64,000 nt of DNA, taken from Alphaproteobacteria bacterium (lineage in GTDB: Bacteria > Pseudomonadota > Alphaproteobacteria > UBA8366). The stretch spans positions 4,621,234 through 4,685,233 of the forward strand of contig OZ245815.1 in NCBI GenBank assembly GCA_965228425.1, read 5' to 3'. The translations under genes and the position numbers were made by a program. The stretch's first letter is position 1, and each line of letters begins with the position of its first letter. The notes below the pieces were generated by a model. The model was not told the DNA's origin, did not search any database, and worked only from the letters and a program-made list of their open reading frames with translations. Shown piece by piece: positions 10,675 to 44,239 of the stretch.

Positions 10675-10700
10675 CCCTGCCTCCCTGCTTTTTCTTTGAT

Positions 10701-13094: not shown

Positions 13095-13191
13095 TGAGCC
13101 AGAACTTTAACACACTCTTCCGCCAGCGCACGGCGATGAATCACATGGAGACGCGAGCGACGGCATACCGTTCGCGCAGGGAGAAAATTTC

Positions 13192-14826: not shown

Positions 14827-14835
14827 CCGGGGGCG

Positions 14836-18340: not shown

Positions 18341-18344
18341 CCGC

Positions 18345-27744: not shown

Positions 27745-29277
27745 GTGGCCTTCGAAGACAGGATCAAAGAACACGAAGAACGCACGAAACGCGCGACAGC
27801 CATGGGCGGCCCCGACAAGCTGGACCGCCGCCGCGACAACGGGCTGCTGAACGCGCGCGAACGGGTCGACTACCTGTTCGACGCCGGCAGCTTCCGGGAA
27901 TCCGGCCTCTACGGCGTCTCCTACCTTCCCGATATGCGCGACCAGACACCGACCGACGGCAAGGTGACCGGGTTCGGCAATGTCGACAGCCGCAAGGTCG
28001 GGGTGGTGGCCTATGACTTCACGGTCAAGGGATCGTCGAGCAGCTACACCAACAACCGCAAGATGTCGCATATAAAGGAGATGGGCACGAAGCGCGGCTT
28101 TCCCGTGGTGTTCATGACCGAATCCACCGGCGTCCGCATGCCGGACGTGATGGGCGAAGGCATGGGCTTCACCGACGAAGGCCGCCGCTTCATGCGCACC
28201 CGGACCGCGCCCTGGGTCTGCGCCCAGCTCGGCCCGTGTTTCGGCTCGGCGGCGTGGCACGCCGTCTGTTCGGACTTCAACGTGATGCGCAAAGGCTCGG
28301 TGATGGCGGTGACCAGTCCCCGGATGGTGTCGCGCGCCGTCGGCCAGGAAATCTCCGGCGAAGACCTCGGCGGCTGGCGGGTCCATGCGGATCACACGGG
28401 GTTCGCCGACGTCGTGGTCGACACCGACGAGGAAGCGATCGACACGGTCAAGAAATTCCTGAGCTACATGCCGAGCCACCAGAACGAAGCGCCGCCGGTC
28501 ATGCCCGTCCCGGACGGATCGGACGAGGCCGGTAAGACCATCCTCGACCTGTTCCCGGAATCGCCGACGAAGGTCTACGACGTGCGCAAGATCATCCAGG
28601 CCTTCGTGGACAAGGACAGCTTCTTCGAGATCAAGGCGCGGTATGGCCGCAGCATGTGCACGGCGCTGGCCCGCATCGACGGCAAGAGCGTCGGGCTGAT
28701 CGCCAACAACCCGCAGTTCAAGGGCGGCGCCATGGATGCGCAGGCCTGCACCAAGGCGACGAGTTTTCTGGTGCTCTGTGATTCGTACAACATTCCAATC
28801 GTCTTCCTGCAGGACCAGCCGGGCTTCCTGATCGGCCCGGACGCCGAGAAACAGGGCATCATCGGCAAGATCATCAACTGGATGAACGCGATGCTGCAGA
28901 CCACGGTGCCGAAGGTCACGATCATCATGCGCAAGAGTTACGGCCGCGGCTTCATCAACATGGGGGCCGCGAACACGGTCGAAGAGATTGCCGCCTGGTG
29001 GAGCGCGGAGGTCAGTTTCATGGACCCGCGCTCGGCGGTCGCCGTGGTGCACGGTATCGAGGAAGAAGACGATCCCGAACGCTACCAGGAACTCCTGAAG
29101 GAAATGGCGCGCGACGGCGGCGCCTACGATCTCGCCGCGGTGTATGGCGTCAAGGAAGTCCTGGATCCGCGGGAGACGCGGGCCTATCTCATCGACATGC
29201 TGGACATCCACCGGTCCCGTCTCAGCAACGGGATCGGCGAGCACAAGCTGGAGGCATGGCCCACCAGTTACGTGTAG
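27745..29277 (+). CDS. acyl-CoA carboxylase carboxyltransferase (beta) subunit
   Basis: ORF 27712..29277 shows two carboxyltransferase half-domains (DFTVKGSSSSYTNNRK; IPIVFLQDQPGFLIG). The likely start is the GTG at 27745, 7 nt after AAGAGGA. Confidence 0.85.
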   Translation: MAFEDRIKEHEERTKRATAMGGPDKLDRRRDNGLLNARERVDYLFDAGSFRESGLYGVSYLPDMRDQTPTDGKVTGFGNVDSRKVGVVAYDFTVKGSSSSYTNNRKMSHIKEMGTKRGFPVVFMTESTGVRMPDVMGEGMGFTDEGRRFMRTRTAPWVCAQLGPCFGSAAWHAVCSDFNVMRKGSVMAVTSPRMVSRAVGQEISGEDLGGWRVHADHTGFADVVVDTDEEAIDTVKKFLSYMPSHQNEAPPVMPVPDGSDEAGKTILDLFPESPTKVYDVRKIIQAFVDKDSFFEIKARYGRSMCTALARIDGKSVGLIANNPQFKGGAMDAQACTKATSFLVLCDSYNIPIVFLQDQPGFLIGPDAEKQGIIGKIINWMNAMLQTTVPKVTIIMRKSYGRGFINMGAANTVEEIAAWWSAEVSFMDPRSAVAVVHGIEEEDDPERYQELLKEMARDGGAYDLAAVYGVKEVLDPRETRAYLIDMLDIHRSRLSNGIGEHKLEAWPTSYV

Positions 29278-29317
29278 AGTGCCCCCGCGCCAATAACCTC
29301 ATTGCGGAATTCCGGGC

Positions 29318-29677
29318 ATGACACAGCATGCGATCGCCAATCTCCTCGCGGACCTGCCCGACCATCTCTCCGAGGAACGGTTCGAAACGCTCGTCCAATC
29401 CGGCAACACCAAGCTCGAACGGATCATATCGACCGGACACAGCACCGACCCCGGCGACTGGTACGATCAGGCGCAGGCCGAGTGGGTAATGGTGGTCAAG
29501 GGCCGCGCCGGGCTTCGGTTCGAGGACGAGCCGGACACACGCATTCTTGAACCCGGCGACCATCTATTGATCCCGCCGCATGCCCGCCATCGCGTAGAAT
29601 GGACCAGCGCGGACGAGCCGACCGTTTGGCTCGCCCTTCATCTCCCCGGGAAAACCACGGAGCCATCGACCGAATGA
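29318..29677 (+). CDS. cupin domain protein
   Basis: 119 aa. GDHLLIPPHARHRVEW is a cupin motif-2-like His cluster. Confidence 0.75.
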   Translation: MTQHAIANLLADLPDHLSEERFETLVQSGNTKLERIISTGHSTDPGDWYDQAQAEWVMVVKGRAGLRFEDEPDTRILEPGDHLLIPPHARHRVEWTSADEPTVWLALHLPGKTTEPSTE

Positions 29678-31356
29678 CCGCCGCGACCCGATCTCTACGC
29701 CGACTCGCCGGAGCGGCCCTGTGTATTGTCGCCGCCGGCGGGCTGTCGATCGCCCCCGTTCAAGCGCGCAATGAGCTCGTTATCGGCATCAGCCAATTTC
29801 CCGACAACTTCAATCCCAAGATCAACTCGATGGCGGCCAAGTCGTACATCCTGGCCCTGGCCCGCCGGCCGGTCACGACCTTCGACGCGGACTGGAACCT
29901 GATCTGCATGCTGTGCACCGAACTGCCGAGCAAGGAGAAGGGTACCGCACGTTTTGAGAAGACCAAGGACGGCAAGGACGGCGTCGCCGTAACCTACACG
30001 CTGCGCCCGGACGCGCGCTGGGGTGACGGCACGCCGATCACCACCAAGGACGTGGTCTTGAGTTGGCAGATCGGCAAGCATCCGATGAGCGGCGTCAGCA
30101 ACGCCGAGTTCTATCGCCGGATCGACCGCATCGACGTGAAGGACGACCACACCTTCACGCTGCACAAGAACAAGCGGACCTGCACCTACGCCAACGCCAA
30201 CGACTTCCACATCGTCCCCGCGCATCTGGAAAAACCGAAGTTCAAGAATCCCAGCACCTACAACCGGCGCAGCGCCTACGAATCGGATACGACCAATCCG
30301 GGGCTCTGGTTCGGCCCCTACCGGGTCGCCAAGGTCGAGGCGGGCTCGCATGTGGTGCTGGAGCGCAACCCCACCTGGTGGGGCCGCAAACCGGCCTTCG
30401 ACCGGGTCGTCGTCAAGGCGATCGAAAACACCTCGGCCATGACCGCCAACCTGCTCGCCGGGGGCATCGACTATATCGCCGGTGAAGTCGGCATGACGCT
30501 GGACCAGGCCATGGCGTTGGAAGACCGCCACGGCGACCGGTTCAACTTCGTCTTCAAGCCGAGCCTCGTCTACGAACATATCGACGTGAACCTGGACAAT
30601 CCCGTCCTGGCCGACCGCCGCGTCCGGCAGGCCTTGCTCTATGCCATCGACCGCAAGGCGATCAGCACGCAACTGTTCGACGGCTACCAGCCGGTCGCCA
30701 CCAGTTCGATCAACCCGCTCGACCGCGTCTACAGCGCGGACACGCCGCGCTACCCGCTCGACCGCGAGAAAGCCTCGGCGCTGCTAGACGACGCCGGGTG
30801 GCGGCTGCGCGACGACGGCATCCGCTACAACGACAAGGGCAAGCGGCTGCAGCTCATGATCATGACGACGGCCGGCAACAAGACGCGGGAACTCGTCCAA
30901 CAGGTCCTGCAGAGCAATTGGCGGCAGGTCGGCATCGACATGCGCATCCGGAACGAGCCGGCCCGCGTCTTCTTCGGCGAAACGGTGCGGCGGCGGAAAT
31001 TCTCCGGGCTGGCGATGTACGCGTGGCTGTCGTCGCCGCAAAACGTGCCGCGCGGACAACTCCATTCGGAAGAAATCCCCAGCGCCGAGGGCGGATGGTC
31101 GGGACAGAACTACCCGGGCCTGCGCAGCCCGGCCTTCGACGCGGTTCTAGACAGCCTCGAAACCGAGTGCGACCCGGAAAAGAACATGCGGCTCTGGCAC
31201 GACCTGCAAAAGCTCTACATGGAGGAACTGCCGGCCTTGCCGCTGTATTTCCGCGCCCAGCCCCACATCATGCCGACATGGCTGAAAGGGGTGAACCCGA
31301 CCGGCCATCAATATCCGGCGAGCCTGTGGATCGAGGAATGGACGGCGAAGAAGTGA
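29674..31356 (+). CDS. ABC transporter substrate-binding protein, family 5 (peptide/nickel type)
   Basis: The start is the ATG at 29674 (MTAATRSLRRLAGAALCIVAAGG..., a signal peptide), with an ATGA overlap with the cupin stop. It has family 5 SBP size and sequence character. Confidence 0.85.
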   Translation: MTAATRSLRRLAGAALCIVAAGGLSIAPVQARNELVIGISQFPDNFNPKINSMAAKSYILALARRPVTTFDADWNLICMLCTELPSKEKGTARFEKTKDGKDGVAVTYTLRPDARWGDGTPITTKDVVLSWQIGKHPMSGVSNAEFYRRIDRIDVKDDHTFTLHKNKRTCTYANANDFHIVPAHLEKPKFKNPSTYNRRSAYESDTTNPGLWFGPYRVAKVEAGSHVVLERNPTWWGRKPAFDRVVVKAIENTSAMTANLLAGGIDYIAGEVGMTLDQAMALEDRHGDRFNFVFKPSLVYEHIDVNLDNPVLADRRVRQALLYAIDRKAISTQLFDGYQPVATSSINPLDRVYSADTPRYPLDREKASALLDDAGWRLRDDGIRYNDKGKRLQLMIMTTAGNKTRELVQQVLQSNWRQVGIDMRIRNEPARVFFGETVRRRKFSGLAMYAWLSSPQNVPRGQLHSEEIPSAEGGWSGQNYPGLRSPAFDAVLDSLETECDPEKNMRLWHDLQKLYMEELPALPLYFRAQPHIMPTWLKGVNPTGHQYPASLWIEEWTAKK

Positions 31357-31375
31357 GGCGGGCGCCGGCCACGCG

Positions 31376-32038
31376 TCACTCGCGCGGCTCCTCCGTGGCC
31401 TTGGTTTGGTATTGCGGGGCCGCCAAGCCCATGGAGACGTAAATCTGCGTCAACGCCTCGACGCCGAAATCGGCCGGCTCGATCCAATCCTTCGGAACGA
31501 AGATCAGGCCGCCGCCGAACGGGATCGGCGCCGTCGGAACCAGAATCCCGCAATAGGATTTGTCCTTGAGGTGAATGAGTTCGGACGTGGGCATCAGGGC
31601 AAGCACGGCGGCGCCCGCGTCACCGCCGAAAAAGCACCATACCGGACTCATCGACTTTAGATCGACTTCCTCCCGGCGCTCCAACATGGCGATGAAGCTA
31701 TTGGAGAGGCTATACATGCTGCCGATCAGCGGGACGCGACCGACCGTGTTGTCGAGAAAGGCCTTGAACCGTCCGCGCAAGGTCGACATGACGACCAGTC
31801 CGACCAGATAGAAGAGCAGCAGCAGAGCGACGACGCCGACGCCGTAAGCGATCGTCTCGTTGCGCAGGATGGTGACGCCGAGCCGGGAAAGGAACTGCCC
31901 GAACACGCTGCCCGGGCCGAGATAGTCCCGGATGAAATCCGCTAGCCAAACGACCACGATCGCGGTTAGGAGGATCGGAAGAACGGCGAGAAAACCCGCC
32001 ATTATCCGCTGCGCGAATGACCTTAAGAGTCTGTACAT
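31376..32038 (-). CDS. DUF502 family membrane protein
   Basis: MYRLLRSFAQRIMAGFLAVLPILLTAIVVVWL is a typical DUF502 N-terminus. The ATG at 32038 is preceded by GGAAGG. Confidence 0.75.
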   Translation of the reverse strand: MYRLLRSFAQRIMAGFLAVLPILLTAIVVVWLADFIRDYLGPGSVFGQFLSRLGVTILRNETIAYGVGVVALLLLFYLVGLVVMSTLRGRFKAFLDNTVGRVPLIGSMYSLSNSFIAMLERREEVDLKSMSPVWCFFGGDAGAAVLALMPTSELIHLKDKSYCGILVPTAPIPFGGGLIFVPKDWIEPADFGVEALTQIYVSMGLAAPQYQTKATEEPRE

Positions 32039-32250
32039 CAAACGACCTTCCATCGAACGGACGCGGGCGGCGCAATCGCCTTAAAGACGGGCGACCTTAC
32101 GGCGAAATTCATGGTTGGTCCCGCGAATTCGCACGGCACGTTGTCCCGCCCAAGCCAAGCGTGCCTAGAAGAGAAACGTCCGACCGGGCACAACAATCCC
32201 ATAATTCCGAAAATAGGGACCCGGTATCAGAAAAATAAGCGTCCGGGCGG

Positions 32251-33171
32251 TCAAACGGCCCACTTCCGTGGCTTCGTCAATGTGCCGGTCTTGCGCGCAA
32301 TATCGAGAAATCGGGCGACCGCGGGGGATGCATCATCTTGCCGCCACGCGACGCCGAATTCGATATGGCGCGATGCGGGTCGCGTTTTGAGATTGCGGAA
32401 CACGACCCCCGGCGGCCTGAAATGCCGCAGTGATGCCGCGCCGACCGCGACGCCGATCCCCGCCGCGACGAGGCTTACCATCGTGTGAAGATGCTGCACC
32501 TCTTCGACAACTTTCGGGGCAAACCCGGCTTCCGCGAAGGCAGAGGATACGTGCGCGTGAAGGCCGGTCCCCCAACGCGGCGGGATGAAGACGAAGGGCT
32601 CGTCCCGCAGGTCGGCGATACCCACAACCTTTCGCGTCGCCAGGCGATGTTCTTCGGGCACGGCGACGATCAATGGCTCCTTGTGGAAAATCTGCTGCAC
32701 CACCCCTTTCGCGGATGCCATCGGCGCAAGGAAGAGCGCCACGTCGATTTCCTTGACCCGCAGCGCCTCCGGCTGGTCCGGCGTCGTGATTTCGGCAAAC
32801 CGCAAGCCCACCTCGGGATGCCGGTCCCGGAAGATTCGCAGGATTCGCGGCAAAACATCATAGGTCGCCGTCGGAAAAAACCCGATCGTGATCCGACCGC
32901 TCAATCCTCTCGCGACCGCTTGCGCCACCGCCACGCTGTCGTCCAACTGGGACAGCAGAAGTTCGGCGCGACCAAGAAAAACCTCGCCGGCGCGAGTCAG
33001 CTCGACGCGATGCCGGTCGCGCAAGAACAACGGCGTCCCGATTTCCTCTTCCAGCTTTCGGATGGCCTCGCTCAACGGCGGTTGCGAGATATGCAGTTGT
33101 GCCGCGGCGCGGCGGAAACTGCGTTCTTTCGCAACCGCAATGAACCGCTCGAGTTGGCGAATGTCGGGCAC
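32251..33171 (-). CDS. LysR family transcriptional regulator
   Basis: It has an N-terminal HTH (LERFIAVAKERSFRRAAAQLHISQPPLSEAIRKLE) and is divergent from the TauD genes. Confidence 0.9.
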   Translation of the reverse strand: MPDIRQLERFIAVAKERSFRRAAAQLHISQPPLSEAIRKLEEEIGTPLFLRDRHRVELTRAGEVFLGRAELLLSQLDDSVAVAQAVARGLSGRITIGFFPTATYDVLPRILRIFRDRHPEVGLRFAEITTPDQPEALRVKEIDVALFLAPMASAKGVVQQIFHKEPLIVAVPEEHRLATRKVVGIADLRDEPFVFIPPRWGTGLHAHVSSAFAEAGFAPKVVEEVQHLHTMVSLVAAGIGVAVGAASLRHFRPPGVVFRNLKTRPASRHIEFGVAWRQDDASPAVARFLDIARKTGTLTKPRKWAV

Positions 33172-33199
33172 CGCAGCCTCCTATCTACGCACTTGCTTA

Positions 33200-33220
33200 G
33201 TGATAGGGTTTTCATATCAC
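33200..33220. promoter_or_regulatory. candidate LysR-type operator (GTGATA-N9-TATCAC)
   Basis: A perfect 6-bp inverted repeat with a 9-bp spacer lies in the 161-bp divergent region between the LysR gene and the first TauD gene. A further TATCAC half-site lies at about 33247-33252. Confidence 0.45.
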
Positions 33221-33332
33221 GATAGCAAAGAAAAACGTATTTGCCATATCACCCGCCGCTCCCTACCGTGATCGAAAACCGATTACCGGAGCGGCACCAA
33301 CAGTAACGGCGTGCCAATTGGGAGGACGAACC

Positions 33333-34190
33333 ATGAGCCATGTCGCCAAGCCCGACCAGTCCAAGCGCTACGACCAAATCGCCGTGCATCCGCAAGCGGG
33401 CACCTTGGGGGCGGAGATCGTCGGCGTCGACCTGTCGAAACCGCTGGAGGATGCGGTCTTCGCGGAGATCGAACAGGCCTTCCACGAAAATCTGGTCATC
33501 GTCCTGCGCAATCAAACGATCGAACCGGGCGACCTGGTCGCCTTCACGGAGCGCTTCGGCGCGGTCGAACCCCATCCGCTCGGCTCGCGGCGCGGGCTGG
33601 AAAGTCAGCCCGAAGTCATGATCCTCGAGAACAAGCCGGGGAAGCTCGGACCGCGTAACGATTTCTGGCATTCGGATATTTCCTTCGGCGACCAACCACC
33701 ACTGGGATCGATCCTGTACTCGATCAAGATCACCGAAGGCCGCGGCGACACCATGTTCTGCAACATGTATGACGCCTACGAGGGTTTGTCCGACGGCCTG
33801 CGCACGATGCTGGACGGCATGACAGCCCTGCACTCCGCCGAAAAGCTCGTGCGGGAGGTGCCGAACCGGCTGTCGGTGGACATCGCGCCGGCGGCGGTCG
33901 AGCACCCGGTCGTGCGCACCCATGTCGGCACCGGGCGCAAGGCCCTCTATGTCAATCCGCATTACACGCTGAGCTTCAAGGGCTGGACGCCCGAGGAAAG
34001 CCAACCGCTGCTCGACATGCTGACCGCCCGGGCCACCCGCCCGGAAAACGTCTATCGGCACAAATGGCAGGTTGGCGATGTCCTGATGTGGGATAACCGA
34101 TGCACCATGCACTACGCCGTGCGCGACTACGACGATACGATGCCGCGGCTGATGCATCGCACGACGGCCGCCGGCGACATTCCCCATTAA
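33333..34190 (+). CDS. TauD/TfdA family Fe(II)/2-oxoglutarate dioxygenase
   Basis: The start is the ATG at 33333 behind GGGAGGA. It has FWHSDISF (the HxD facial-triad region), and MWDNRCTMHYA and RLMHRTT near the C-terminus. Confidence 0.9.
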   Translation: MSHVAKPDQSKRYDQIAVHPQAGTLGAEIVGVDLSKPLEDAVFAEIEQAFHENLVIVLRNQTIEPGDLVAFTERFGAVEPHPLGSRRGLESQPEVMILENKPGKLGPRNDFWHSDISFGDQPPLGSILYSIKITEGRGDTMFCNMYDAYEGLSDGLRTMLDGMTALHSAEKLVREVPNRLSVDIAPAAVEHPVVRTHVGTGRKALYVNPHYTLSFKGWTPEESQPLLDMLTARATRPENVYRHKWQVGDVLMWDNRCTMHYAVRDYDDTMPRLMHRTTAAGDIPH

Positions 34191-34221
34191 CGGTGTTCGC
34201 AGCGGCGAGGAGGCCTGAAAC

Positions 34222-35088
34222 ATGACGATATCAATTGTCCCGTTGACCGATGCGCTGGGGGCGGAAATTCAGGGCATCGATCTGGCTCAACCGCTGGACG
34301 ACCGGACATTCGCCCGGATCGAGGACGCCTTCCATGCCCACTCGGTCTTGCTGTTTCGCGACCAATCGCTCTCGCCGGACCAGCAAGTAGCGTTCTCGCG
34401 GCGCTTCGGCGATCTCGAAACCCATGTCTTGGATCAATACAACCATCCCGACTTTCCGGAGATCCTGATCGTCTCGAATGTCATGGATGGCGACCGCCAC
34501 GTGGGAATCTACGACGCCGGGAAGTATTGGCACACCGACCTTTCCTACATGGAGGTGCCGAGCCGCGGCTCGATGCTACACGCAATCGAAGTGCCAGTGG
34601 AAAACGGCGAACCGTTGGGCGATACGCTGTTCACCAGCACCACGGCCGCCTATGACGCACTGACAGACGACCTGAAAGAGCAGATCGAGTCCCTCGAAGC
34701 GGTTTACAGCCTCGGGCATCGGTTCTCCCGCCTCGTCGCGGACGGCGACGCGGACGCGGCGATGACGGAAGCGCAGCTTGAACGAGCACCGGAGGTGACC
34801 CACCGCATCGTGCAGACCCACCCCATCACCGGCCGGCGCGTCCTCTATGTCAACGAGGGTCAGACGGCCCGGCTGCTCGGCATGTCCGATGGGGAAAGCC
34901 GTGCGCTGCTCGACACGCTTTTCGCCCATATCGCGCGGCCGGCCTACACCTATCGTCACAAATGGCGAAAGGGCGACGTCGTCATGTGGGACAACATCCC
35001 GACGCAGCATTTGGCGATTCAGGACTATGCCCTGCCGCAGCGGCGTTACATGCACCGCACGACGCTGCGGGGCACCGCGCTGGCATAA
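34222..35088 (+). CDS. TauD/TfdA family Fe(II)/2-oxoglutarate dioxygenase (second copy)
   Basis: It has YWHTDLSY, MWDNIPTQHLA and RYMHRTT. Confidence 0.9.
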   Translation: MTISIVPLTDALGAEIQGIDLAQPLDDRTFARIEDAFHAHSVLLFRDQSLSPDQQVAFSRRFGDLETHVLDQYNHPDFPEILIVSNVMDGDRHVGIYDAGKYWHTDLSYMEVPSRGSMLHAIEVPVENGEPLGDTLFTSTTAAYDALTDDLKEQIESLEAVYSLGHRFSRLVADGDADAAMTEAQLERAPEVTHRIVQTHPITGRRVLYVNEGQTARLLGMSDGESRALLDTLFAHIARPAYTYRHKWRKGDVVMWDNIPTQHLAIQDYALPQRRYMHRTTLRGTALA

Positions 35089-35105
35089 CGCCACTCCCAA
35101 ACAGG

Positions 35106-36479
35106 ATGAAAAAGATCGAGGCCATGGAAAGCGCATCGCAAACCCTTGCCCGGCATGTCGTGCGGACGACCTATGACGACCTGCCGGCACCCGCCATCGA
35201 CGCCGCGAAATGGTTCCTGCTGGACACGGTCGGGGTCGCCTGGGCGGGAACCGGAGCACCCGGCGCCGACGCTTTGCGGCGGACGGTGCTTGCCGACCAC
35301 GCCGCCGGCGACTGCACGGAACTCGCCTCGGACCATCGGCTACCGCCGACGTCGGCCGCGCTGTTGAACGGCATGTATGCGGGCGCGTTGGATTTCGACG
35401 GGGTGTATGAAAAGGGATCGGTCCATCCCGACATCGTCACACTGCCCGCCGCCCTCGCCATTGCGGAACAACAACATGCCAGCGGACGCGACCTGTTGAC
35501 GGCACTGACCCTCGGCAACGACATCTCGTGCCGGTCCGGCGGGGCGATGACCGGCAACCGGGGATGGTTCAATACGGCGACGCATGGCGTGTTCGGCGGC
35601 GCGGCGGCGGCCGCGAAGCTCCTGCGGTTGGATGCGGATCAAACCGCGGACGCGCTGGGACTTGCGTTCAGTCAGGCTGCGGGATCGCAACAGGCGCTCG
35701 TCGAAAAAAGCCTCGTCAAGCGCATGCTGTCCGGCATGGCCGCCCGCGCCGCGGTCTTCGCCGCGCTCGCCGCCCAGCAGGGCGTATCCGCACCGAAAGA
35801 AGTGTTCGAAGGGACGTTCGGATTCCATACCCTATACGGCGACGGCGATAGCGGCGCGTTGCTCGAGCGGCTCGGCGAGCGGTACGAGAATGCCGACACG
35901 GTGACCAAGAAATATCCAAGCTGCACCGCCAACCACGTCGCGATCGAGGCGGCGCTTACGTTGCGCGACGCGCATGGTCTCACCGCGGACGACATCGACG
36001 GGGCAACCGTGACGATCTCACCCTTCATGGACGGCCTGGTCGGCGGCCCGTTCGACCCGGCCGACAACCCGCAGGTCGCGGCGCAATTCTCGGTCCAGTA
36101 TTCGGTCGCCTGCGCGATCGTGCGCGGGCGGCTGGGTATCGCGGAAATCCAGGAAGACATCATTGCCGACCCGTCGATCAATGCCCTGGCAGAAAAGATA
36201 TCGGTGCGCGTGAACCAGGACTGGCCCGGTAAGTTCGCGCCCTGCGACCTGCAGATCCGCACGGCCGACGGGCGGGACCTGAACCATCACGCGGCGCACA
36301 CGCCGGGAAGCCCGGAGAATCCCATGAGCCTGGGCGACCTGAAGGATAAGTTCCGCGACTGCACGGCATCGGGCATCCGTCCGTTGTCGGATGCGCAATG
36401 CGACCGTGCAATCGAGACGATCCTGAATATCGAAGGCGCCGCCGATATCAGCGGCGTCTTCGCATTCCAGCAGCTTTAG
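35106..36479 (+). CDS. MmgE/PrpD family protein
   Basis: The start is the ATG at 35106 (MKKIEAMESASQTLARHVV.TTYDDLP..AIDAAK..LLDTVGVA, a typical PrpD-family N-terminus). Length is 457 aa. Confidence 0.85.
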   Translation: MKKIEAMESASQTLARHVVRTTYDDLPAPAIDAAKWFLLDTVGVAWAGTGAPGADALRRTVLADHAAGDCTELASDHRLPPTSAALLNGMYAGALDFDGVYEKGSVHPDIVTLPAALAIAEQQHASGRDLLTALTLGNDISCRSGGAMTGNRGWFNTATHGVFGGAAAAAKLLRLDADQTADALGLAFSQAAGSQQALVEKSLVKRMLSGMAARAAVFAALAAQQGVSAPKEVFEGTFGFHTLYGDGDSGALLERLGERYENADTVTKKYPSCTANHVAIEAALTLRDAHGLTADDIDGATVTISPFMDGLVGGPFDPADNPQVAAQFSVQYSVACAIVRGRLGIAEIQEDIIADPSINALAEKISVRVNQDWPGKFAPCDLQIRTADGRDLNHHAAHTPGSPENPMSLGDLKDKFRDCTASGIRPLSDAQCDRAIETILNIEGAADISGVFAFQQL

Positions 36480-36503
36480 ACGACATCAGCCCGCGCCGAA
36501 GCG

Positions 36504-37259
36504 TCACCGCATCTTGGCGACCATCTCCGCAGCGGCGACCCCAAGGATGCGGTAGTCGACCGACAGCGTCACCAGATCGAAGCCCGACTTCAGCATCTTC
36601 TTGGCGTATTCGGACGAGGCGCAATGGATGCCCGCATTCACGCCATGCTTCTTGGCTTGGCGCAGGATGCGCTTGATCTCTTTCACGACGACCGGATCGG
36701 TTTGGTCCAGCTTCGGAATCTTGCCGAGCGCCAAACCCAGGTCCGACGGTCCGACATAGACGGCGTCCAGCCCCGGTACCGACAGGATGTCGTCGAGATT
36801 GGCGAGGCCGTCTTCGGTCTCGATCATGCCGATCGCCAGGACGGTCGCGTTCGCCTTCGCCGCGTAATCGTCGCCGCCGTACATCGAGGCGCGCGCCGGT
36901 CCGAAACTGCGCTGTCCCTTCGGCGGATACCGGCAGGCAGCGACCAGACGCTCCGCGTCTTCCTTGTTGTTGATCATCGGGCAGATAATGCCGTAGCAGC
37001 CAGCGTCCAGCATCTTCATGATGATGCCTTCTTCCAGCCAGGGCACGCGCGCCATCGGCGTCGCCTTGGTCGTACTGATCGCCTGGAGCATGGGGACCGC
37101 GGTGTCGTAGTGGACGATGCCGTGCTGCAGATCGACGGTAACCGAATCGAATCCCTGATGGGCCATCACCTCGGCCGCGAAACTGCTGGGAATCGAGCAC
37201 CAGCCGTTGACGACCCCTTTCTTGCCCCGCCACATCCGGCGGACATTGTTTGCACGCAT
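36504..37259 (-). CDS. HpcH/HpaI family class II aldolase
   Basis: 251 aa with GWCSIPSSFAAEVMAHQGFDSVTVDLQHG and PMARVPW motifs. Confidence 0.85.
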   Translation of the reverse strand: MRANNVRRMWRGKKGVVNGWCSIPSSFAAEVMAHQGFDSVTVDLQHGIVHYDTAVPMLQAISTTKATPMARVPWLEEGIIMKMLDAGCYGIICPMINNKEDAERLVAACRYPPKGQRSFGPARASMYGGDDYAAKANATVLAIGMIETEDGLANLDDILSVPGLDAVYVGPSDLGLALGKIPKLDQTDPVVVKEIKRILRQAKKHGVNAGIHCASSEYAKKMLKSGFDLVTLSVDYRILGVAAAEMVAKMR

Positions 37260-37307
37260 GAATTCCTCCCTGAAACTGATTAAGTGTTGTTCTCCGAATC
37301 CCGGTCG

Positions 37308-38291
37308 CTACGGTAGATCGAGAACGTCCGGGTTGATGACCATGTCGAGATTCAAATTCCCATCGATCGCGTCCAGCACATTCTGGACACAGACCATCCC
37401 CATCCGCAACGACGCTTCCTTGCTCGACCCGCCCATATGCGGCGCGCACAAGACATTGTCGAAGGCGAAAAGCGGATGGTCGGGCGCCGGTGGCTCCACC
37501 GCGAATACGTCGAGCCCGACACCGAACAAACGGCCGGCCGTCAACGCATCCAACAGCGCAGCCTCGTCCACGAGGCCCCCGCGCGCGCAATTGACGACGA
37601 TCGCCGTATCCTTCATCGCGGCCAGTTCATCGGCGCCGATCATGCCGACGGTTTCCTCGTTCTTCGGCACGTGAACGGTCAGATAGTCCACCTCACCCAG
37701 AACCGACCGGTAGTCGGCGACCGGCGTGCACCCGGCGTCACGGATGATTTGTTGGTCGATATACGGATCGCAGACCAGGACGTTCATCTCGAATGCCTTG
37801 CAACGCGCGGCGACCCGGCGGCCGATCCGGCCGAACCCGATGATCAACAGCGTCTTCTGCCACAGCTCGATCATGTTGGCCTGGAACTTGAAGGTCCAAT
37901 CGTCGCCGCGCACGGCCCGGTCGTGATCCCGTCCGCGCTTGGCGAGTTCGAGCATCATGTAGATCGCAAGCTCGGCGACGTTGACCGCATTTGCCTCGCC
38001 GACGACGGTGAGCGGCACGCCGCATTCATTCAGCGCCTCCAGGTCGACATTGTCGTAGCCGACGCCGTAGCGCGACACCACTTTCAGGTCCGGCGCGGAC
38101 CGGATCATGCCGCCGGTCACGAAAGCGGCGCGCAACGCGACACCGGATGTTCCCGGAAACGCGGCAAGCAGCGACTCCTCGGAAACATCCGTTATGTGTT
38201 CCACCGAAATGTCGTCGCGCGCGGTGAAAAGATCGAGCGCCGACGGCGGCAGTTCGCCGATGACAAGGACCTTGTGCTGATTTTTCGTCAT
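37308..38291 (-). CDS. D-isomer-specific 2-hydroxyacid dehydrogenase
   Basis: It has the IIGFGRIGRRVA NAD-binding motif, the NCARGGLVDE and APHMGGSS catalytic regions. Confidence 0.9.
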   Translation of the reverse strand: MTKNQHKVLVIGELPPSALDLFTARDDISVEHITDVSEESLLAAFPGTSGVALRAAFVTGGMIRSAPDLKVVSRYGVGYDNVDLEALNECGVPLTVVGEANAVNVAELAIYMMLELAKRGRDHDRAVRGDDWTFKFQANMIELWQKTLLIIGFGRIGRRVAARCKAFEMNVLVCDPYIDQQIIRDAGCTPVADYRSVLGEVDYLTVHVPKNEETVGMIGADELAAMKDTAIVVNCARGGLVDEAALLDALTAGRLFGVGLDVFAVEPPAPDHPLFAFDNVLCAPHMGGSSKEASLRMGMVCVQNVLDAIDGNLNLDMVINPDVLDLP

Positions 38292-38517
38292 GCAAACTCC
38301 GCGGCCGCTTCGCCTGGGCCATCGCTCGTGCGGGCGTCATGTCCAGCGAAGGGAAACCGGAAGGAGACGATCCGTCGTGAAAACCAAGGTGCGGCCTTGC
38401 GCCGCTGCCAAATTCCATAGCAGGATACGCGGCGGCTATGCAAACGCCCGCATCGATTTTGTAATCGCGTCGACCAAATCAAAACACCATCTTCAATGAT
38501 CCGAAAGGACGGCACCA

Positions 38518-39225
38518 ATGACCGAAACGCCCCTGGACACCGCGCTGCTCGACACGTTGCGCAAGTACGACACCCCGACGATCTGCAACGGGCTCGAAAT
38601 CGTAGCACCGGAGCGCCGCGCGACCGGTTTCACGACGTCGCAGATGGTGTCCTGCAATCCGTCGCTGCCGCCGATCGTCGGTTATGCGCGCACCTGTCTA
38701 ATCCGCGCCGTCGACGCACCGACCATGTCCCCGCAAGAGACCAAGGACAAGCGGCTTGGGTATTACGAATACGTGGCGTCGGGCGACGGACCGACGATTC
38801 CGGTGATCCAGGATATCGATCCGGTCCCCGGCTTCGGCGCGTTCTGGGGCGAAGTACAGACCAACGTGCATAAGGCGCTCGGTTGCCCCGGCGCGGTGAC
38901 CAACGGGTCGATCCGCGATCTCGACGCGCTCGCCGAAGGATTCCACTTGATCGGCGGCGAAGTCGGGCCGAGCCATGCGCATGTACATGTCGTCGAGTTC
39001 GGCACGCATGTGAATCTGTTCGGCATGGCAGTGAAACACGGCGACCTGATCCATGCGGATCATCACGGCGCGGTCGTCATCCCGCATGCGGTGGCCAACG
39101 ACCTGCCGGCCGCGATCACGGTGATCGAGAAAAAGGAAAGCTTCATCCTCGAGGCCGCCCGCAGCGGAAACTTCACCGTCGATGCGTTGCGCAAGGCGAT
39201 GGCGGACGGCGAGGACATCCACTAA
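38518..39225 (+). CDS. RraA-family protein (HMG/CHA aldolase / oxaloacetate decarboxylase-like)
   Basis: 235 aa. LRKYDTPTICNGLE and GAVTNGSIRD are typical RraA/DlpA-fold motifs. Confidence 0.85.
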   Translation: MTETPLDTALLDTLRKYDTPTICNGLEIVAPERRATGFTTSQMVSCNPSLPPIVGYARTCLIRAVDAPTMSPQETKDKRLGYYEYVASGDGPTIPVIQDIDPVPGFGAFWGEVQTNVHKALGCPGAVTNGSIRDLDALAEGFHLIGGEVGPSHAHVHVVEFGTHVNLFGMAVKHGDLIHADHHGAVVIPHAVANDLPAAITVIEKKESFILEAARSGNFTVDALRKAMADGEDIH

Positions 39226-39249
39226 GGACGAAGCGCCCGGACCGACGGA

Positions 39250-40614
39250 TCAATCCAGCAGCTTGTTGGGCAGCCACATGGCGATGTCCGGAAAGGCCAT
39301 CACCGCGGCGAGCCCGATGAGTTGCAGGATCACGAACGGGATGATACCGCGATAGACCTGGATCATCCTGAGCCCGGCCGGCGCAACCCCCTTCATATAG
39401 AACAAGGCGAATCCGAAGGGTGGCGTCAGGAAGGACGTCTGTAGATTGACCGCAAGCAGGATCGCGAACCAATACACGATATCCTTCTTCATGACGTGAT
39501 CTCCGAAGTCCAGCAACTCGATGATCGGCGTGAACACCGGCAGGACGATCAACGTGATTTCGATCCAGTCGAAGAAGAACCCGAGGATGAAGACCAACAG
39601 CATCAGGGCGAACAGGATGCCCCAGGAACCCAGTTCCGCGGCCTCCACCGTGCCGATCACCACGTCGTCCCCGCCGAGCGCCCGGAAGACGTAGGAGAAA
39701 GCGGTCGCGCACAGGAAGATCATGAACAGCATGCCGCCAGTCAGCGCGCTGCGCTCGACGACATCCTTCAGGACCGGCAGCGTCAGTTTGCGGCGTATCA
39801 GCGCGAGCACCGTCGCCCCCGCCGCCCCAACGCCGGCTGCCTCGGTCGGTGTCGCCCAGCCGAACAGGATCGAGCCCAGCACCAGGAAGATCAAAAAGAC
39901 CGGCGGGATGAAACTGCGCACGACGAGCAACAGGAGTTGTCCCACCGAATCCGGCCCGACATCGCTCGCCAACGGCGGCGCGATACTAGGTTTGATACGG
40001 CTGACCGTGAAGATGTAAACGAAATACATCCCCGACAGCATCAGGCCCGGCAACAGCGCCGCAACGAACAGATTGCCGACCGACCGGGCCAGCAGGTCGG
40101 CCATCACCACCAGCATGATGCTGGGCGGAATCAAGATACCCAATGTGCCGGACGCAGCGATCGTGCCGCTGGACAATTCGTTGCTATACTTCTGCCGCAT
40201 CATCACCGGCAGCGCCAGCAGGGTCATCATGACGACCGACGCCCCAATGATCCCGGTCGTCGCGGCCATAATCGTGCCCATCACCGTCACCGACAGCGCG
40301 AGCCCACCGGGGACCCGACGCAACAACACCTGCAGGCAGTGCAACAGGTCGGTCGCCACGCCGCTTTTTTCCAGCATGGTGCCCATGAAGATGAACATCG
40401 GAATCGCGGTGAGGATTAAGTTCTCGGCAATGCCGCCCCAGATGCGCGGCAACAGATTGAAAAGCTGCAACGGCACGAACACGTCGTAGGCCATGCCCAA
40501 CGCGGCGAATCCCAACGCCACGCCGCCGAGCACGAAGGCGACGGGATACCCGCTGAACAGCAGGATGCCCAACGCGCCGAACATGAGAACCGGCAGAAGG
40601 TCGACGATGTCCAT
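39250..40614 (-). CDS. TRAP transporter large permease (DctM type)
   Basis: A 454-aa polytopic membrane protein immediately downstream of the small permease. Confidence 0.9.
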   Translation of the reverse strand: MDIVDLLPVLMFGALGILLFSGYPVAFVLGGVALGFAALGMAYDVFVPLQLFNLLPRIWGGIAENLILTAIPMFIFMGTMLEKSGVATDLLHCLQVLLRRVPGGLALSVTVMGTIMAATTGIIGASVVMMTLLALPVMMRQKYSNELSSGTIAASGTLGILIPPSIMLVVMADLLARSVGNLFVAALLPGLMLSGMYFVYIFTVSRIKPSIAPPLASDVGPDSVGQLLLLVVRSFIPPVFLIFLVLGSILFGWATPTEAAGVGAAGATVLALIRRKLTLPVLKDVVERSALTGGMLFMIFLCATAFSYVFRALGGDDVVIGTVEAAELGSWGILFALMLLVFILGFFFDWIEITLIVLPVFTPIIELLDFGDHVMKKDIVYWFAILLAVNLQTSFLTPPFGFALFYMKGVAPAGLRMIQVYRGIIPFVILQLIGLAAVMAFPDIAMWLPNKLLD

Positions 40615-41234
40615 CAGCCGTCCCCGCGGGCGGGGCCGGATGCGCCAGGCCGAACCGCCGCCATGTCGGCTTCGTCGAGAGGTTGCGCCTCTTCCTGCTC
40701 GACCGCGCTGACCCGCTCACGCAGATCCGGCGGACCGAACAATTCGACGATCTTTCGGAGCAGAACCGCAACGCCCGACAGGAACAGCAATCCGAATCCG
40801 ATCGGAATAGCGGACTTGATGATCCAACGATGGCTGAGACCGGTCGCCGAGGAAGACGCTTCGTTCTGGATGAAAGAGCGGTGCGTGAAATCGATGCCGT
40901 AATAGATGATCACGACGCAATAGGGCAGCAAAAATAGCAAAATGCCCAACAACTCAAGCCACCACTTCGTGCGCTCGCTCAACATGTTCCGCACGAGATC
41001 GATACGAACATGTGCATTGGCGAGATAGGCAAAGCCGAGACAAAAAGCAAACAAGATGGTGTGCAGGTGCCATTCGAACTCCTGCAGCTTGGTCGAGCCC
41101 AGGACGAAGAAGCGGCGGGTCACCACGTCGAATATCGTAACGACGATCAGCAAGGCCCCTGCCCACGCCGCCGTCTTGCCGATGCGCGTGATCCAGCGAT
41201 CGAGAAAATCGCTGAGGAGGACGAGATGTTTCAT
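40614..41234 (-). CDS. TRAP transporter small permease (DctQ type)
   Basis: It has four hydrophobic helices, lies between the SBP and DctM genes, and overlaps the DctM start by 1 nt. Confidence 0.8.
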   Translation of the reverse strand: MKHLVLLSDFLDRWITRIGKTAAWAGALLIVVTIFDVVTRRFFVLGSTKLQEFEWHLHTILFAFCLGFAYLANAHVRIDLVRNMLSERTKWWLELLGILLFLLPYCVVIIYYGIDFTHRSFIQNEASSSATGLSHRWIIKSAIPIGFGLLFLSGVAVLLRKIVELFGPPDLRERVSAVEQEEAQPLDEADMAAVRPGASGPARGDG

Positions 41235-41335
41235 AAGAATGCCCGCAAACCGCGCTTGGGCGAAAGGCGACGGGATCCGATGTCGGACCCCGTCGTTCTT
41301 TCGGTTATCGGCTTACGGTTCTTTCTTTACCGAAC

Positions 41336-42394
41336 TCAGAGATAGCCTAGCTCTTTCCATACCTGGTATTCGCCGCGGAACTTCGTGAACGACGCCCAGA
41401 CTTTCTTGAAGTCGGCATTGCTCGCGCTAAGCTCGCCGACGACTTCTTTCCAGGCCTTCTCCAGCTCAGCCAGGACTTCGGGCGGCCACCGATGGATCGT
41501 GACGCCCTTGCTCTTCAACTCGGTAAGCGCCTTGCCTTGGATCGCCTCACCTTCGGCAAGACCTTCGCGGATGTTGTCGCCACACGCGACTTCAAGCTGC
41601 GCCTTCTGAGTTTTCGAGAGTTCTTTCCACTTCTTGTCGCTGATCATTAGGTCGAACAGCGTCGCCTGCTGATGCCAGCCCGGGAAATAGTAGTGCTTGG
41701 CGATTTGATAGAAACCAAGCTTCAAGTCGATTGCCGGCATCGAAAATTCGGTCGCATCGATCGAACCGCGCTCCAGCGCCGGATAAATGTCGCCGCCGGC
41801 GATCAACTGGGTCGAGACGCCGACTTTCTGCATGACCTTCGCGCCAAGACCAAAGAAGCGAATCTTCAATCCCTTGAGGTCCGCAACCGATTTGATTTCC
41901 TTGCGGAACCAGCCGGATGCCTCCGGTGCAATGACGCCGCACATGATAGAATGGATATTGTGCTTGGCGTAGATATCCTTCATCAGCTTCTTGCCGCCGC
42001 CATAATAGTACCAGGCAAGATACTCCCCGGCGCGCGGACCGAACGGCACGGCGGAGAACATCGCTAAGGCGGGTTCCTTGCCGAACCAATAGCCCGGCGT
42101 GGACCACGCGGCATCCAGCGATCCGGACGAGATCGCGTCGAACATCTCCAGCGGCGGCACCAAAGCCTTCGGCTCGAAGAATTTCAGTTGAACGCTGCCG
42201 CCGGAAATGAGCTGCACTTTTTTCGACAGGCTTTTGCCCAGGCTGCCGAGCTGCACCAGCTTTCCGGGGAAGGCGCTGCCCATGTTGAGGCGAACCTTCT
42301 TGTCTTCCGCGCTCACCGCGGTCGCCCCGATGCCAAGTGCGACCGTGCCGGCCACGGCCCCGACGGCCAATGATTTGAGGATGGCATGCTTCAT
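41336..42394 (-). CDS. TRAP transporter substrate-binding protein (DctP type)
   Basis: The start is the ATG at 42394 behind GGGAGAA, giving MKHAILKSLAVGAVAGTVALGIGATAVSA (a signal peptide). Confidence 0.85.
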   Translation of the reverse strand: MKHAILKSLAVGAVAGTVALGIGATAVSAEDKKVRLNMGSAFPGKLVQLGSLGKSLSKKVQLISGGSVQLKFFEPKALVPPLEMFDAISSGSLDAAWSTPGYWFGKEPALAMFSAVPFGPRAGEYLAWYYYGGGKKLMKDIYAKHNIHSIMCGVIAPEASGWFRKEIKSVADLKGLKIRFFGLGAKVMQKVGVSTQLIAGGDIYPALERGSIDATEFSMPAIDLKLGFYQIAKHYYFPGWHQQATLFDLMISDKKWKELSKTQKAQLEVACGDNIREGLAEGEAIQGKALTELKSKGVTIHRWPPEVLAELEKAWKEVVGELSASNADFKKVWASFTKFRGEYQVWKELGYL

Positions 42395-42541
42395 GATCGT
42401 TTTCTCCCTGGTAACCATACATTTGTTTTGTTTGATCGATCTTTGCCTGTCTTTGCGCGACATTACCATAGGCTGTTTCCTGCGGCGGATTACGCAGCCA
42501 GGGTGCCCTATCCGACCATCGCGCCCCGGCGACGGGACCGT

Positions 42542-44239
42542 TCATCCACCTTCGAGAACGACCGCTTGTGCGTCGGCCAAGGCTTCCTCTGGTTCACGCC
42601 CCGCATCTATCCGATGCCAATCGCGAACCGGATCGACCGTCGCCCGTTGCTGCTTGCCGACCGAGGCCGTCGCATCCGACACGTCGGCCGTTCGCGCCGT
42701 CAATCGCCGCTCCTGTTCCTCCGCCGCAATGTCGAGCCAGAGCCCTTGGAACCGAACACCTGCCTCGGCGGCAACATCGGCAATTGCTTGCCGTTCGGCA
42801 TCGCGGCCGAACACGGCATCCGCCACCGCCGCAAATCCCGTCGCCAGCGCCGAGCGGCAGCCGTCGTCGAGGCGCGCATAGACCGCGTCGCTCTGGTCCT
42901 GAGTGTAGGCCTCCGCCGGCAAGGTCTCAAAAACATCAATCCCCGCGAGCTGCTTGCGCAGGACATCCGACCGCAGGATCACCGCGCCCGGCGAACGGCC
43001 GAAAGCCGGTGCAAGCGCAGCGGCCAACGTGCTCTTGCCGCTGCCCGACAGGCCGCCGACGGCGACCAGCCGTGGCGGCACAGGGGCGCGCAACCCGACT
43101 GCCAATTGGAAGTATTCGCGGGCCTCGTCGAATTGATCGGCCGCCGCACCGACATGCGCTCGCACCGCCGCGCGAACCGACATATACAGCGGCAGAAGCG
43201 CCAGGCAGGCATAGTCGGCCGTGCGCGCCAAATATCGGTTCAATACCCTGTTGGCCGCCCAGCGCAGTCCACGATGCTCCAGATCCATCAGCAGGAACGC
43301 TAGGTCGTAGGCCACGTCGATCGTGGCCAGCCGTTCACTGAACTCCAAACAATCGAACAGGGTCGGCACGCCATCGACCAGGCAGATGTTCCGCAGATGC
43401 AGGTCACCGTGACACCGGCGCACGAACCCGCCGCCGGCGCGCTGCCGCAACAACTCCCGATGCGTTTCGATTTCCGCCGTACACGACGCGTCCAGCCGGC
43501 CAACCGCGGCGGCGGAAAATGCGGACGGACTCAACCGGCGCAAGTTGGCCGTATTGCCGCGGACCACATCACACATCTCCGCCGGAAGATCGACGTCGGC
43601 CGCGACGTCGGCCGACGCGTGAAATCGCGCGATCTCATCCGCCAGCGACTCCATGAGCGGTACCGTCAAAGTACCGGTTTCCGCGAGACGGTCGAATAAC
43701 GTCGCCTGATCGAACCGGTCCATGATCACGACCCAATCGAGCACGCGCCCATCACCGCCGATCATCAGCCCGCCGCCGGCGCTTTCGGTTATCGGCGCGA
43801 CCGAACGGTAGAGCGTGGGGGCGGTTCGGCGATTCAGCCGTAGTTCCGCCTCGCAGACGGCTCGCCGCTTGGCAATGGTGGAAAAATCCATATACGGGAA
43901 TTTGACGGCGCGCTTGAGCTTGATCGCGCAATCACCGGCAAGAAAGACATAGGCGCCATGCGTCCGGATCGTCTCGACCGGACCGCCGCCATAGCTCGCC
44001 GGATCGGAGAGGCAATCTATGACCCGCTGTTGATCACCGGCGAAATCGCCCAAGCGAAACTCCTTGTCGATGAATTGCCCGCAACCGCATTCGTCTAACC
44101 CGCTAAAAGCTGACACTGGTGTCGTTACCGCATCCCGGCATTGAGGCACATCAATGCGTGCGCGGAACGACGATCCTATAAAGCATCGAATTACGGATGC
44201 CGGCGCGTGCAACGGCGCGCAAGGTGAAACGAAGGCCAA
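42542..44239 (-). CDS. fused aminoglycoside-phosphotransferase-like kinase / P-loop ATP-binding protein
   Basis: The N-terminal and middle part is a protein-kinase-like fold (CHGDLHLRNICL). The C-terminal part has the P-loop GGLSGSGKST. The start is uncertain: the track start is a TTG and a GTG at 44116 is an alternative. Confidence 0.75.
   Translation of the reverse strand: MAFVSPCAPLHAPASVIRCFIGSSFRARIDVPQCRDAVTTPVSAFSGLDECGCGQFIDKEFRLGDFAGDQQRVIDCLSDPASYGGGPVETIRTHGAYVFLAGDCAIKLKRAVKFPYMDFSTIAKRRAVCEAELRLNRRTAPTLYRSVAPITESAGGGLMIGGDGRVLDWVVIMDRFDQATLFDRLAETGTLTVPLMESLADEIARFHASADVAADVDLPAEMCDVVRGNTANLRRLSPSAFSAAAVGRLDASCTAEIETHRELLRQRAGGGFVRRCHGDLHLRNICLVDGVPTLFDCLEFSERLATIDVAYDLAFLLMDLEHRGLRWAANRVLNRYLARTADYACLALLPLYMSVRAAVRAHVGAAADQFDEAREYFQLAVGLRAPVPPRLVAVGGLSGSGKSTLAAALAPAFGRSPGAVILRSDVLRKQLAGIDVFETLPAEAYTQDQSDAVYARLDDGCRSALATGFAAVADAVFGRDAERQAIADVAAEAGVRFQGLWLDIAAEEQERRLTARTADVSDATASVGKQQRATVDPVRDWHRIDAGREPEEALADAQAVVLEGG

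Follow-up and report, generated by a model that had tools for sequence, protein, structure and literature searches.

Ten contiguous genes at positions 32251-42394 of a 64,000-nucleotide stretch of Alphaproteobacteria bacterium DNA (hereafter the window; contig OZ245815.1 of assembly GCA_965228425.1, forward-strand positions 4,621,234 to 4,685,233) encode a LysR regulator, two TauD/TfdA-family dioxygenases (TauD-A and TauD-B), an MmgE/PrpD-family protein (hereafter PrpD-like), an HpcH/HpaI aldolase, a D-2-hydroxyacid dehydrogenase (HADH), an RraA-like protein and a DctPQM TRAP transporter. Do they constitute one pathway, as a preliminary description of this DNA proposed, or are they separate elements that happen to be neighbours? 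Our analysis showed that the genes fall into at least five transcription units with no co-conservation beyond near relatives, and that only the LysR-TauD-TauD-PrpD block co-travels when neighbourhoods are compared with the PrpD-like and TauD genes as seeds, which contradicts the idea of a single ten-gene catabolic unit. The composition of the smaller unit (LysR, its operator, TauD-A, TauD-B and the PrpD-like protein) and its separability from the neighbouring genes are both assigned with high confidence; we refer to it as the cassette.

Gene calls were taken from the open reading frame listing together with Pfam and NCBIfam profile searches of the window proteins. They confirmed the positions and families of all ten genes in the preliminary description, and identical protein sequences with the same starts were found as called genes in public collections. 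The LysR gene (32251-33171, minus strand; Pfam HTH_1 and LysR_substrate) is divergent from an operon of three plus-strand genes: TauD-A (33333-34190; called start ATG 33333, 285 aa; Pfam TauD, 224 bits; PDB 6d0o, 2e-62), TauD-B (34222-35088; Pfam TauD, 241 bits; PDB 3pvj, 5e-61) and the gene for the PrpD-like protein (35106-36479; N- and C-terminal Pfam domains; PDB 2hp0, 3e-43). The gaps inside this operon are only 31 and 17 bp. Strand orientation alternates along the ten genes, a feature not mentioned in the preliminary description, and they must therefore belong to at least five transcription units, namely LysR, TauDA-TauDB-PrpD, HADH-HpcH, RraA and DctPQM.

The clearest evidence for separability comes from close relatives. 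Homologues of the PrpD-like protein were searched, 24 of them were aligned (alignment A1), 65 genomic loci (referred to by L numbers) were fetched and the window proteins were scored against them by tblastn. Among the loci with a PrpD orthologue, the HpcH, HADH, RraA and TRAP genes are confined to three relatives, L003-L005, whose proteins are about 90% identical to those of the window. Two further loci, L154 and L155, came to light through a member of the HpcH 90% cluster; they carry pepSBP-DUF502-HpcH-HADH-RraA-DctMQP-AAA/APH in window order, with proteins 76-98% identical to the window counterparts, and have no LysR, TauD or PrpD gene. By blastn, at about 86% identity, L154 14155-10968 is the counterpart of window 29000-32154 and L154 10741-3195 that of window 36519-44064, and a 226-bp spacer occupies the place of window 32155-36518 in both L154 and L155. 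The cassette, whose edges are defined by this indel relative to the cassette-less relatives (32155..36518, 4.36 kb), is thus an insertion/deletion polymorphism among close relatives. No repeats or mobile-element scars were evident at its junctions in the window; transposase or integrase genes border the cassettes of L001, L072 and L157, which fits the patchy distribution of the cassette. HADH-HpcH, the RraA-like gene and the TRAP transporter are adjacent, independently inherited genes that do not demonstrably belong to the same pathway.

The cassette itself is found in many Alphaproteobacteria and a few metagenome-assembled genomes (MAGs) of Burkholderiales, in varying contexts. Its PrpD-like proteins form a subclade with its own sequence signature (46-91% identity), for which we could examine 32 distinct loci. 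Both TauD-A and TauD-B lie by the PrpD-like gene in 21 of these, TauD-A only in five, TauD-B only in one and another TauD paralogue in one; three loci have no dioxygenase in the available flank, and in the last one the contig ends at the PrpD-like gene. Orthologues across loci are 60-83% identical for TauD-A and 53-67% for TauD-B, while TauD-A and TauD-B are 37-38% identical to each other, and more than 120 clusters are at least 59% identical to TauD-A, both orthologue groups being common in marine and other MAGs. The genes occur in the orders A-B-PrpD, PrpD-A-B and PrpD-B-A, and their being kept together despite rearrangement argues for functional coupling. A reciprocal search from TauD-A recovered one PrpD-TauDA locus (L157) and one TauDA-TauDB pair without PrpD (L156), suggesting that the two dioxygenases are the tightest couple. 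The transporters next to the cassette vary by locus (TauE, AEC/Mem_trans, MFS, EamA or TAXI-TRAP), as is usual for portable enzyme modules. Upstream of the cassette, L070 has a P450 gene, a CMD-family gene and four GMC oxidoreductase genes in tandem (3148-9717); another PrpD-family paralogue, with 28% identity, is found 7 kb downstream of the cassette in the company of luciferase-like monooxygenases (18074-19414).

The divergent region between LysR and TauD-A contains a predicted two-part operator. The GTGATA-N9-TATCAC motif noted in the preliminary description is indeed present at 33200-33220, as the palindrome GTGATAGGGTTTTCATATCAC of the T-N11-A type (site 1), and occurs once in the window compared to 0.03 copies expected by chance. 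Its core, TGATAGG-N5-TCATATCA, is kept in nine orthologous loci, providing a phylogenetic footprint. A half-site, ACGTATTTGCCATATCAC (site 2, 33235..33252), lies about 15 nt downstream of site 1; a TATTTG-C-TATCA half-site is found about 15-17 nt past the site 1 core in the same nine loci, with the columns TATT-G-C-TATCA invariant in their alignment (A3). These nine include L016, where other genes part LysR from the operon. An orthologous LysR (47-67% identity) accompanies the operon in 11 loci, including L006, L014, L016, L018, L020, L025, L029 and L072. The protein thus has the features of a LysR regulator (HTH_1 and LysR_substrate domains, a divergent target operon and a conserved interrupted palindrome), and its binding to this region is predicted; by NCBIfam it is not CysB/Cbl-like. 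No second copy of the operator was found at the HADH/RraA or DctP promoters: a search of the window allowing two mismatches gave 7 matches, compared to 8.4 expected, none of them at these promoters.

Both dioxygenases belong to the TauD/TfdA superfamily (PF02668), with 224 and 241 bits compared to a cut-off of 27, and both orthologue sets invariably have the Fe triad (H99, D101 and H255 in E. coli TauD numbering) and the 2-oxoglutarate ligands T126 and R266. Also kept in all orthologues of TauD-A and TauD-B are His70 and Arg270, the residues that hold the sulfonate in TauD (PMC12951627, PMC9304159). The other end of the pocket differs. Asp94, Asn95 and Ser158 hold the taurine ammonium in E. 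coli TauD (PMC9304159); TauD-A has D94R together with an invariant two-residue insertion in the lid making GSRRG, and the invariant changes in TauD-B are D94A, N95G, D96K/R and S158R. Since the ammonium-holding residues are replaced, neither enzyme is a taurine dioxygenase, and because the distal pockets are rebuilt with arginines, the substrates of both very likely carry extra negative charge. We have moderate confidence that the cassette acts on a polyanionic substrate. The closest solved relative of TauD-A is RdpA/AAD-1 (6d0o, 214 bits) and that of TauD-B is P. putida TauD (3pvj). RdpA has Val80 at the position of TauD His70, which is a histidine in both cassette paralogues.

The third enzyme is a bona fide MmgE/PrpD-family protein (PF03972, 204 bits; PF19305, 108 bits), but does not qualify as a 2-methylcitrate dehydratase: it scores 35-41 bits against the PrpD equivalog models of NCBIfam, whose cut-offs are 458-950. 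Its closest solved homologue is iminodisuccinate (IDS) epimerase (2hp0, 3e-43), with true PrpD at only 1e-11 in the PDB. The preliminary description had pointed out that the family includes this epimerase; the protein does fall on the epimerase side, but key epimerase residues are missing. Our residue mapping, which matches the published IDS-epimerase numbering exactly (H85, D88, H99, Y145, H150, K198 and K266), was compared with the roles assigned to these residues, which include a second base, Tyr145, and the carboxylate-binding His85 and His150 (PMC12290011). D96, H107, K205 and K268 are invariant in the orthologues of the PrpD-like protein. However, H85 is replaced by Gly or Ala and H150 by Phe in every one of them, and a three-residue deletion removes H144-Y145-L146, including the second catalytic base, leaving the residue set of a two-base epimerase (Tyr145/148, His85/88 and His150/152) incomplete. 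His85 and His150 have been described as conserved across the MmgE/PrpD family, which is large and mostly uncharacterised and whose known substrates are all C4 dicarboxylates substituted at C2/C3 (PMC12290011). With the second base lost, the enzyme is probably not a classical epimerase but an isomerase, eliminase or decarboxylase working with one base; judged by these residues, it probably performs enolate chemistry at the carbon next to a carboxylate by a one-base mechanism, and its ligand may differ from a plain 1,4-dicarboxylate. Further invariant residues of the cassette subclade are E102, S105, C142, N151 and K201. The G93/F155 substitutions (the positions of H85 and H150) were considered as a marker of the TauD-associated subclade and ruled out, the two histidine losses being common to a wider clade, mostly from Burkholderiales without TauD neighbours. 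L024-L067, from Burkholderiales/Alcaligenaceae MAGs, represent a broad uncharacterised MmgE/PrpD clade with 34-50% identity to the window protein, Arg at 143 and 206, neither His85 nor His150, and no TauD neighbours.

What the cassette might cleave is suggested by the genes that recur beside it. In L014, L015, L018 and L023 the operon is immediately followed by a TauE/SafE gene, and L017 has one about 4 kb downstream; these proteins are 61-72% identical to one another. Sulfatase-family genes occur within 10 kb in L007, L015, L016, L023 and L072, the order in L072 being LysR, PrpD-TauDA-sulfatase-TAXI TRAP, and a CysI-DUF934 pair lies 4 kb from the TauDA-TauDB pair of L156. In total, a TauE, sulfatase or sulfite reductase gene is found in 9 of the 29 TauD-bearing loci (560 kb), compared to none of the 39 PrpD-clade loci without TauD (608 kb) and none of the 80 RraA loci (619 kb) used as controls. 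Because the loci are phylogenetically non-independent, this enrichment is suggestive and not proof. The conserved clamp and these sulfur neighbours would be compatible with a place in a sulfonate/sulfate-acting TauD subgroup; the clamp alone also allows a carboxylate. Since sulfur-related genes recur beside the cassette, we favour the sulfo-carboxylate class, and tentatively, at somewhat short of an even chance, name as substrate a small sulfo-carboxylate such as sulfosuccinate, 3-sulfolactate, cysteate, sulfoacetate or 3-sulfopropionate. Our confidence in the sulfonate assignment as such is low to moderate.

These observations can be brought together in a model that we consider somewhat likelier to be right than wrong, in which a self-contained LysR/operator/TauD-A/TauD-B/PrpD-like cassette carries out the oxidative cleavage of a polyanionic sulfo-carboxylate and its neighbours are inherited independently. 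LysR would bind the two-part operator and control the tight TauD-A, TauD-B and PrpD-like operon. Both dioxygenases would be active Fe(II)/2-oxoglutarate enzymes that hydroxylate the carbon next to the anion held in the His70/Arg270 clamp, with the distal arginines that take the place of the taurine-amine binders accommodating a substrate with further negative charge, for example one or more carboxylates. If the hydroxylated carbon bears a leaving group, this group would be released and a 2-oxo or aldehyde acid left; in the case of a small sulfo-carboxylate the leaving group would be sulfite. The PrpD-like enzyme would apply the His/Lys enolate chemistry of its family to the same or a related acid, probably as a one-base isomerase, eliminase or decarboxylase, in keeping with the missing second base of the epimerases. 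The overall activity would be an inducible, oxygen-dependent cleavage, probably a desulfonation.

It is improbable that all ten genes form one LysR-controlled pathway, in which a carboxylate imported by the TRAP transporter would be hydroxylated twice, pass through PrpD-like and dehydrogenase steps and be cleaved by the two aldolases. The genes are contiguous in the window, L003 and L004, and HpcH, HADH, PrpD and TauD-A genes are co-directional in the unrelated L069, HpcH-family genes being found nowhere outside L069 and the window lineage in the 1.95 Mb fetched. Against this stand the five transcription units and the single operator copy, the cassette-less L154 and L155, which retain the right-hand genes, and the absence of all of these genes from more than 25 cassette loci. 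Even the relatives at about 90% identity differ in their transporters, with a TAXI-TRAP inserted in L003 and L005 and DctPQM missing in L005; moreover, DctP resembles a binding protein for monocarboxylic keto acids, and the RraA-like gene usually lies beside psd-pssA. Still less probable, to the point that we give it hardly any weight, is that both TauDs are ordinary taurine dioxygenases used for sulfur scavenging, with the PrpD-like gene an unrelated neighbour. Taurine dioxygenase is the best NCBIfam model for both proteins and some sources name their orthologues accordingly, but the scores (211.6 and 250.7 bits) fall below the 313-bit cut-off of the equivalog NF007104, which, with the replacement of the amine binders, partly by arginines, led us to rule out this function. 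Nor does it account for the PrpD-like gene being adjacent in about 28 of 32 loci, in several gene orders, or for a regulator that is not of the CysB/Cbl type.

The main rival to the sulfo-carboxylate model, possible but in our view unlikely, is a sulfur-free polycarboxylate substrate, either an ether- or amine-linked acid or simply a hydroxylated alkyl- or tricarboxylate. An iminodisuccinate-like compound, an opine or carboxymethyl-succinate would undergo O- or N-dealkylation of the TfdA/RdpA type to a 2-oxo acid, with the PrpD-like enzyme interconverting isomers. This would agree with RdpA and IDS epimerase being the closest solved relatives of TauD-A and the PrpD-like protein, respectively, with the substituted C4 dicarboxylates used by the characterised MmgE/PrpD enzymes (PMC12290011), with arginine-rich pockets, which suit polycarboxylates, and with the lack of any adjacent TauE, sulfatase or sulfite-handling gene at the window's own cassette. 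On the other hand, it leaves unexplained why 9 of 29 loci, compared to 0 of 119 controls, have TauE, sulfatase or CysI genes; it would have to do without Tyr145 and the two carboxylate-binding histidines, and both paralogues have the histidine of TauD in place of RdpA Val80. Several of our own observations also weigh against the sulfo-carboxylate model. The sulfur link is one of association, in loci that are phylogenetically clustered and mostly come from marine Rhodospirillales-like MAGs, and the window's cassette lacks such neighbours. Carboxylates, too, can be bound by a basic residue at the position of His70; TfdA carries a lysine there, and RdpA, the best solved relative of TauD-A, cleaves an ether in a carboxylate substrate. 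As G/A93 and F155 also occur in the wider TauD-less clade, they are not specific evidence for sulfonate binding. The TauDA-TauDB pair can dispense with PrpD, as in L156. Finally, the thiamine pyrophosphate (TPP) enzyme in the L069 operon, a candidate for sulfoacetaldehyde acetyltransferase (Xsc), was ruled out as such, being acetolactate-synthase-like (PRK08322, 746 bits), and HpcH and HADH family genes abut PrpD and TauD-A in this second, unrelated lineage.

The L069 arrangement (8158-15497, equivalent to L022) consists of co-directional, tightly spaced genes for HpcH, a 2-hydroxyacid dehydrogenase, the PrpD-like protein, TauD-A, a GltS-like protein (a stand-alone glutamate-synthase FMN-domain protein of 500 aa) and the TPP enzyme, and its PrpD-TauDA-TPP core recurs in L028, L060 and L157. 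Its HpcH and HADH are 31-33% identical to those of the window. On the strength of this locus, a class II aldolase and a 2-hydroxyacid dehydrogenase might process a cassette product, although we regard this as rather unlikely given the cassette-less relatives and the absence of both genes from more than 25 cassette loci.

The window's own HpcH/HpaI aldolase (36504-37259, minus strand) belongs to its Pfam family with 109 bits and does not reach the equivalog cut-offs of HpaI, GarL or YfaU, its closest structure being the Sphingomonas wittichii hydroxyketoacid aldolase 6r62 (3e-60). The HADH gene (37308-38291, minus strand; Pfam) encodes a protein that is 93% identical in L004 and only 70% identical in L003 and L005. 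In the latter two loci, the inserted TAXI-type TRAP system (an NMT1_3 binding protein and a fused 633-aa DctQM) lies between HADH and RraA (L003 13323-16407, L005 13410-16396) and is co-directional with RraA. The preliminary description saw the next protein (38518-39225, plus strand) as having an RraA fold and being HMG/CHA-aldolase-like. The fold is borne out, with a weak Pfam match of 51.6 bits, but a LigK-type aldolase is not supported, with 23-26 bits against the LigK/HMG-CHA aldolase models (including PRK09262), whose cut-offs are 179-304. Among solved structures this RraA-like protein has no close relative, 3noj reaching only E = 0.0064 in a profile search, and it belongs to a large family with 6555 matches. 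The gene was considered as a marker of an HpcH/TRAP catabolic module and rejected, none of 47 other loci having HpcH or DctP; HADH is present in 6 of the 47 and directly adjacent in 3, at 43-46% identity. In 16 of these 47 metagenome loci (e.g. L102 6192-8696), RraA-like orthologues with 52-60% identity directly follow psd-pssA, encoding phosphatidylserine decarboxylase and a CDP-alcohol phosphatidyltransferase, a synteny of the housekeeping type. The DctPQM transporter was correctly recognised in the preliminary description, all three Pfam families being present on the minus strand: DctM (39250-40614), DctQ (40614-41234) and DctP (41336-42394). DctP is TakP-like, of the alpha-keto-acid type (TakP 2hzk, 2e-69; the 'ketoacid-binding protein' 7ug8, 1e-61), and such a ligand is predicted for it.

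Directly downstream of DctP, a minus-strand gene (42542-44239) encodes a 565-aa fusion of an APH-type phosphotransferase and an AAA_33 kinase-like protein, whose position is kept in L004, L005, L154 and L155. Four long open reading frames of 307-380 aa in antisense or other frames, 33249-34223 (minus), 36448-37590 (minus), 37437-38420 (plus) and 39496-40419 (plus), were taken as spurious because they overlap Pfam-confirmed genes; such frames are usual in DNA of 62% GC. Rfam and tRNA scans of the window gave no matches. At its far end, a GC content of about 0.60 gives way to 0.50 between 60160 and 64000, the drop beginning at a phage-type integrase gene (60160-61341, Phage_integrase) that is followed by open reading frames without a Pfam match, and this region is probably an integrated element.

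How does the cassette relate to systems that have been characterised? Its parts all come from well-known families, and overall it would be a substrate-inducible oxygenase cassette. Its dioxygenases share with TauD of the E. coli and P. putida tauABCD systems the PF02668 fold and an identical Fe triad, 2-oxoglutarate Thr/Arg pair and His70/Arg270 clamp, and the cassettes of relatives adjoin a TauE-type exporter. They differ in scoring below the equivalog cut-off and in having Arg or Gly in place of taurine-amine binders, and the cassette joins a PrpD-family gene to two diverged tandem paralogues, with a LysR regulator of their own instead of CysB/Cbl control. RdpA and SdpA (AAD-1) are two family members that divide between them the stereoisomers of a 2-substituted carboxylate, and the proposed hydroxylation next to an anion, after which a leaving group departs and a 2-oxo acid results, resembles their reaction. 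The match is however at the level of paralogues, TauD-A having a GSRRG lid instead of LKS and His for Val80, and the cassette has no aromatic-catabolic context. The PrpD-like protein keeps the His99 equivalent, Asp88 and both enolate-stabilising lysines of IDS epimerase and (S)-(R)-methylsuccinate isomerase; in addition to its lack of Tyr145, His85 and His150, it differs from them by extra invariant Arg, Lys and Cys residues, and the cassette includes no lyase or CoA-transferase partner. A precedent for carbon catabolism by oxygenolytic C-S cleavage, beyond sulfur scavenging, is the TauD-family enzyme SqoD (sulfo-ASDO; PMC10507154, PMC12951627). SqoD holds the sulfonate by a neutral Gln/backbone motif and recognises the sugar (PMC12951627), whereas in the cassette enzymes the clamp is cationic and the pocket rich in arginine, and no sugar-processing genes are nearby.

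The preliminary description did not recognise the gene combination as a named pathway, and in agreement with this our literature search found no characterised cluster of this composition, nor any joining TauD-family and MmgE/PrpD-family genes. The TauD/PrpD pairing, the charge-reversed pockets and a PrpD active site without the second base and the two histidines all appear to be undescribed. It is possible, although speculative, that the cassette represents an undescribed O2-dependent route for polyanionic organosulfur acids, in which the two TauDs would cut a C-S (or C-O-S) bond and the MmgE/PrpD enzyme would act on the sulfonate analogue of a C4 dicarboxylate.

A speculative ten-gene pathway is thus narrowed to a four-gene cassette with a conserved operator and natural presence/absence variants in close relatives. 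For the MmgE/PrpD family, the comparison defines a clade without the two supposedly universal carboxylate-binding histidines and ties one of its subclades to a pair of partner enzymes. Environmental surveys often record TauD-family genes as taurine dioxygenase (e.g. bioRxiv 10.1101/2024.12.10.627767); both orthologue groups described here lack the TauD amine binders and should not be read as taurine users. If the sulfur reading is true, organosulfur cycling would through the cassette gain a new oxygenolytic route of desulfonation and the MmgE/PrpD family its first sulfur-linked role, and many of the 'tauD' genes of marine metagenomes that are counted as taurine dioxygenases would have a different substrate.

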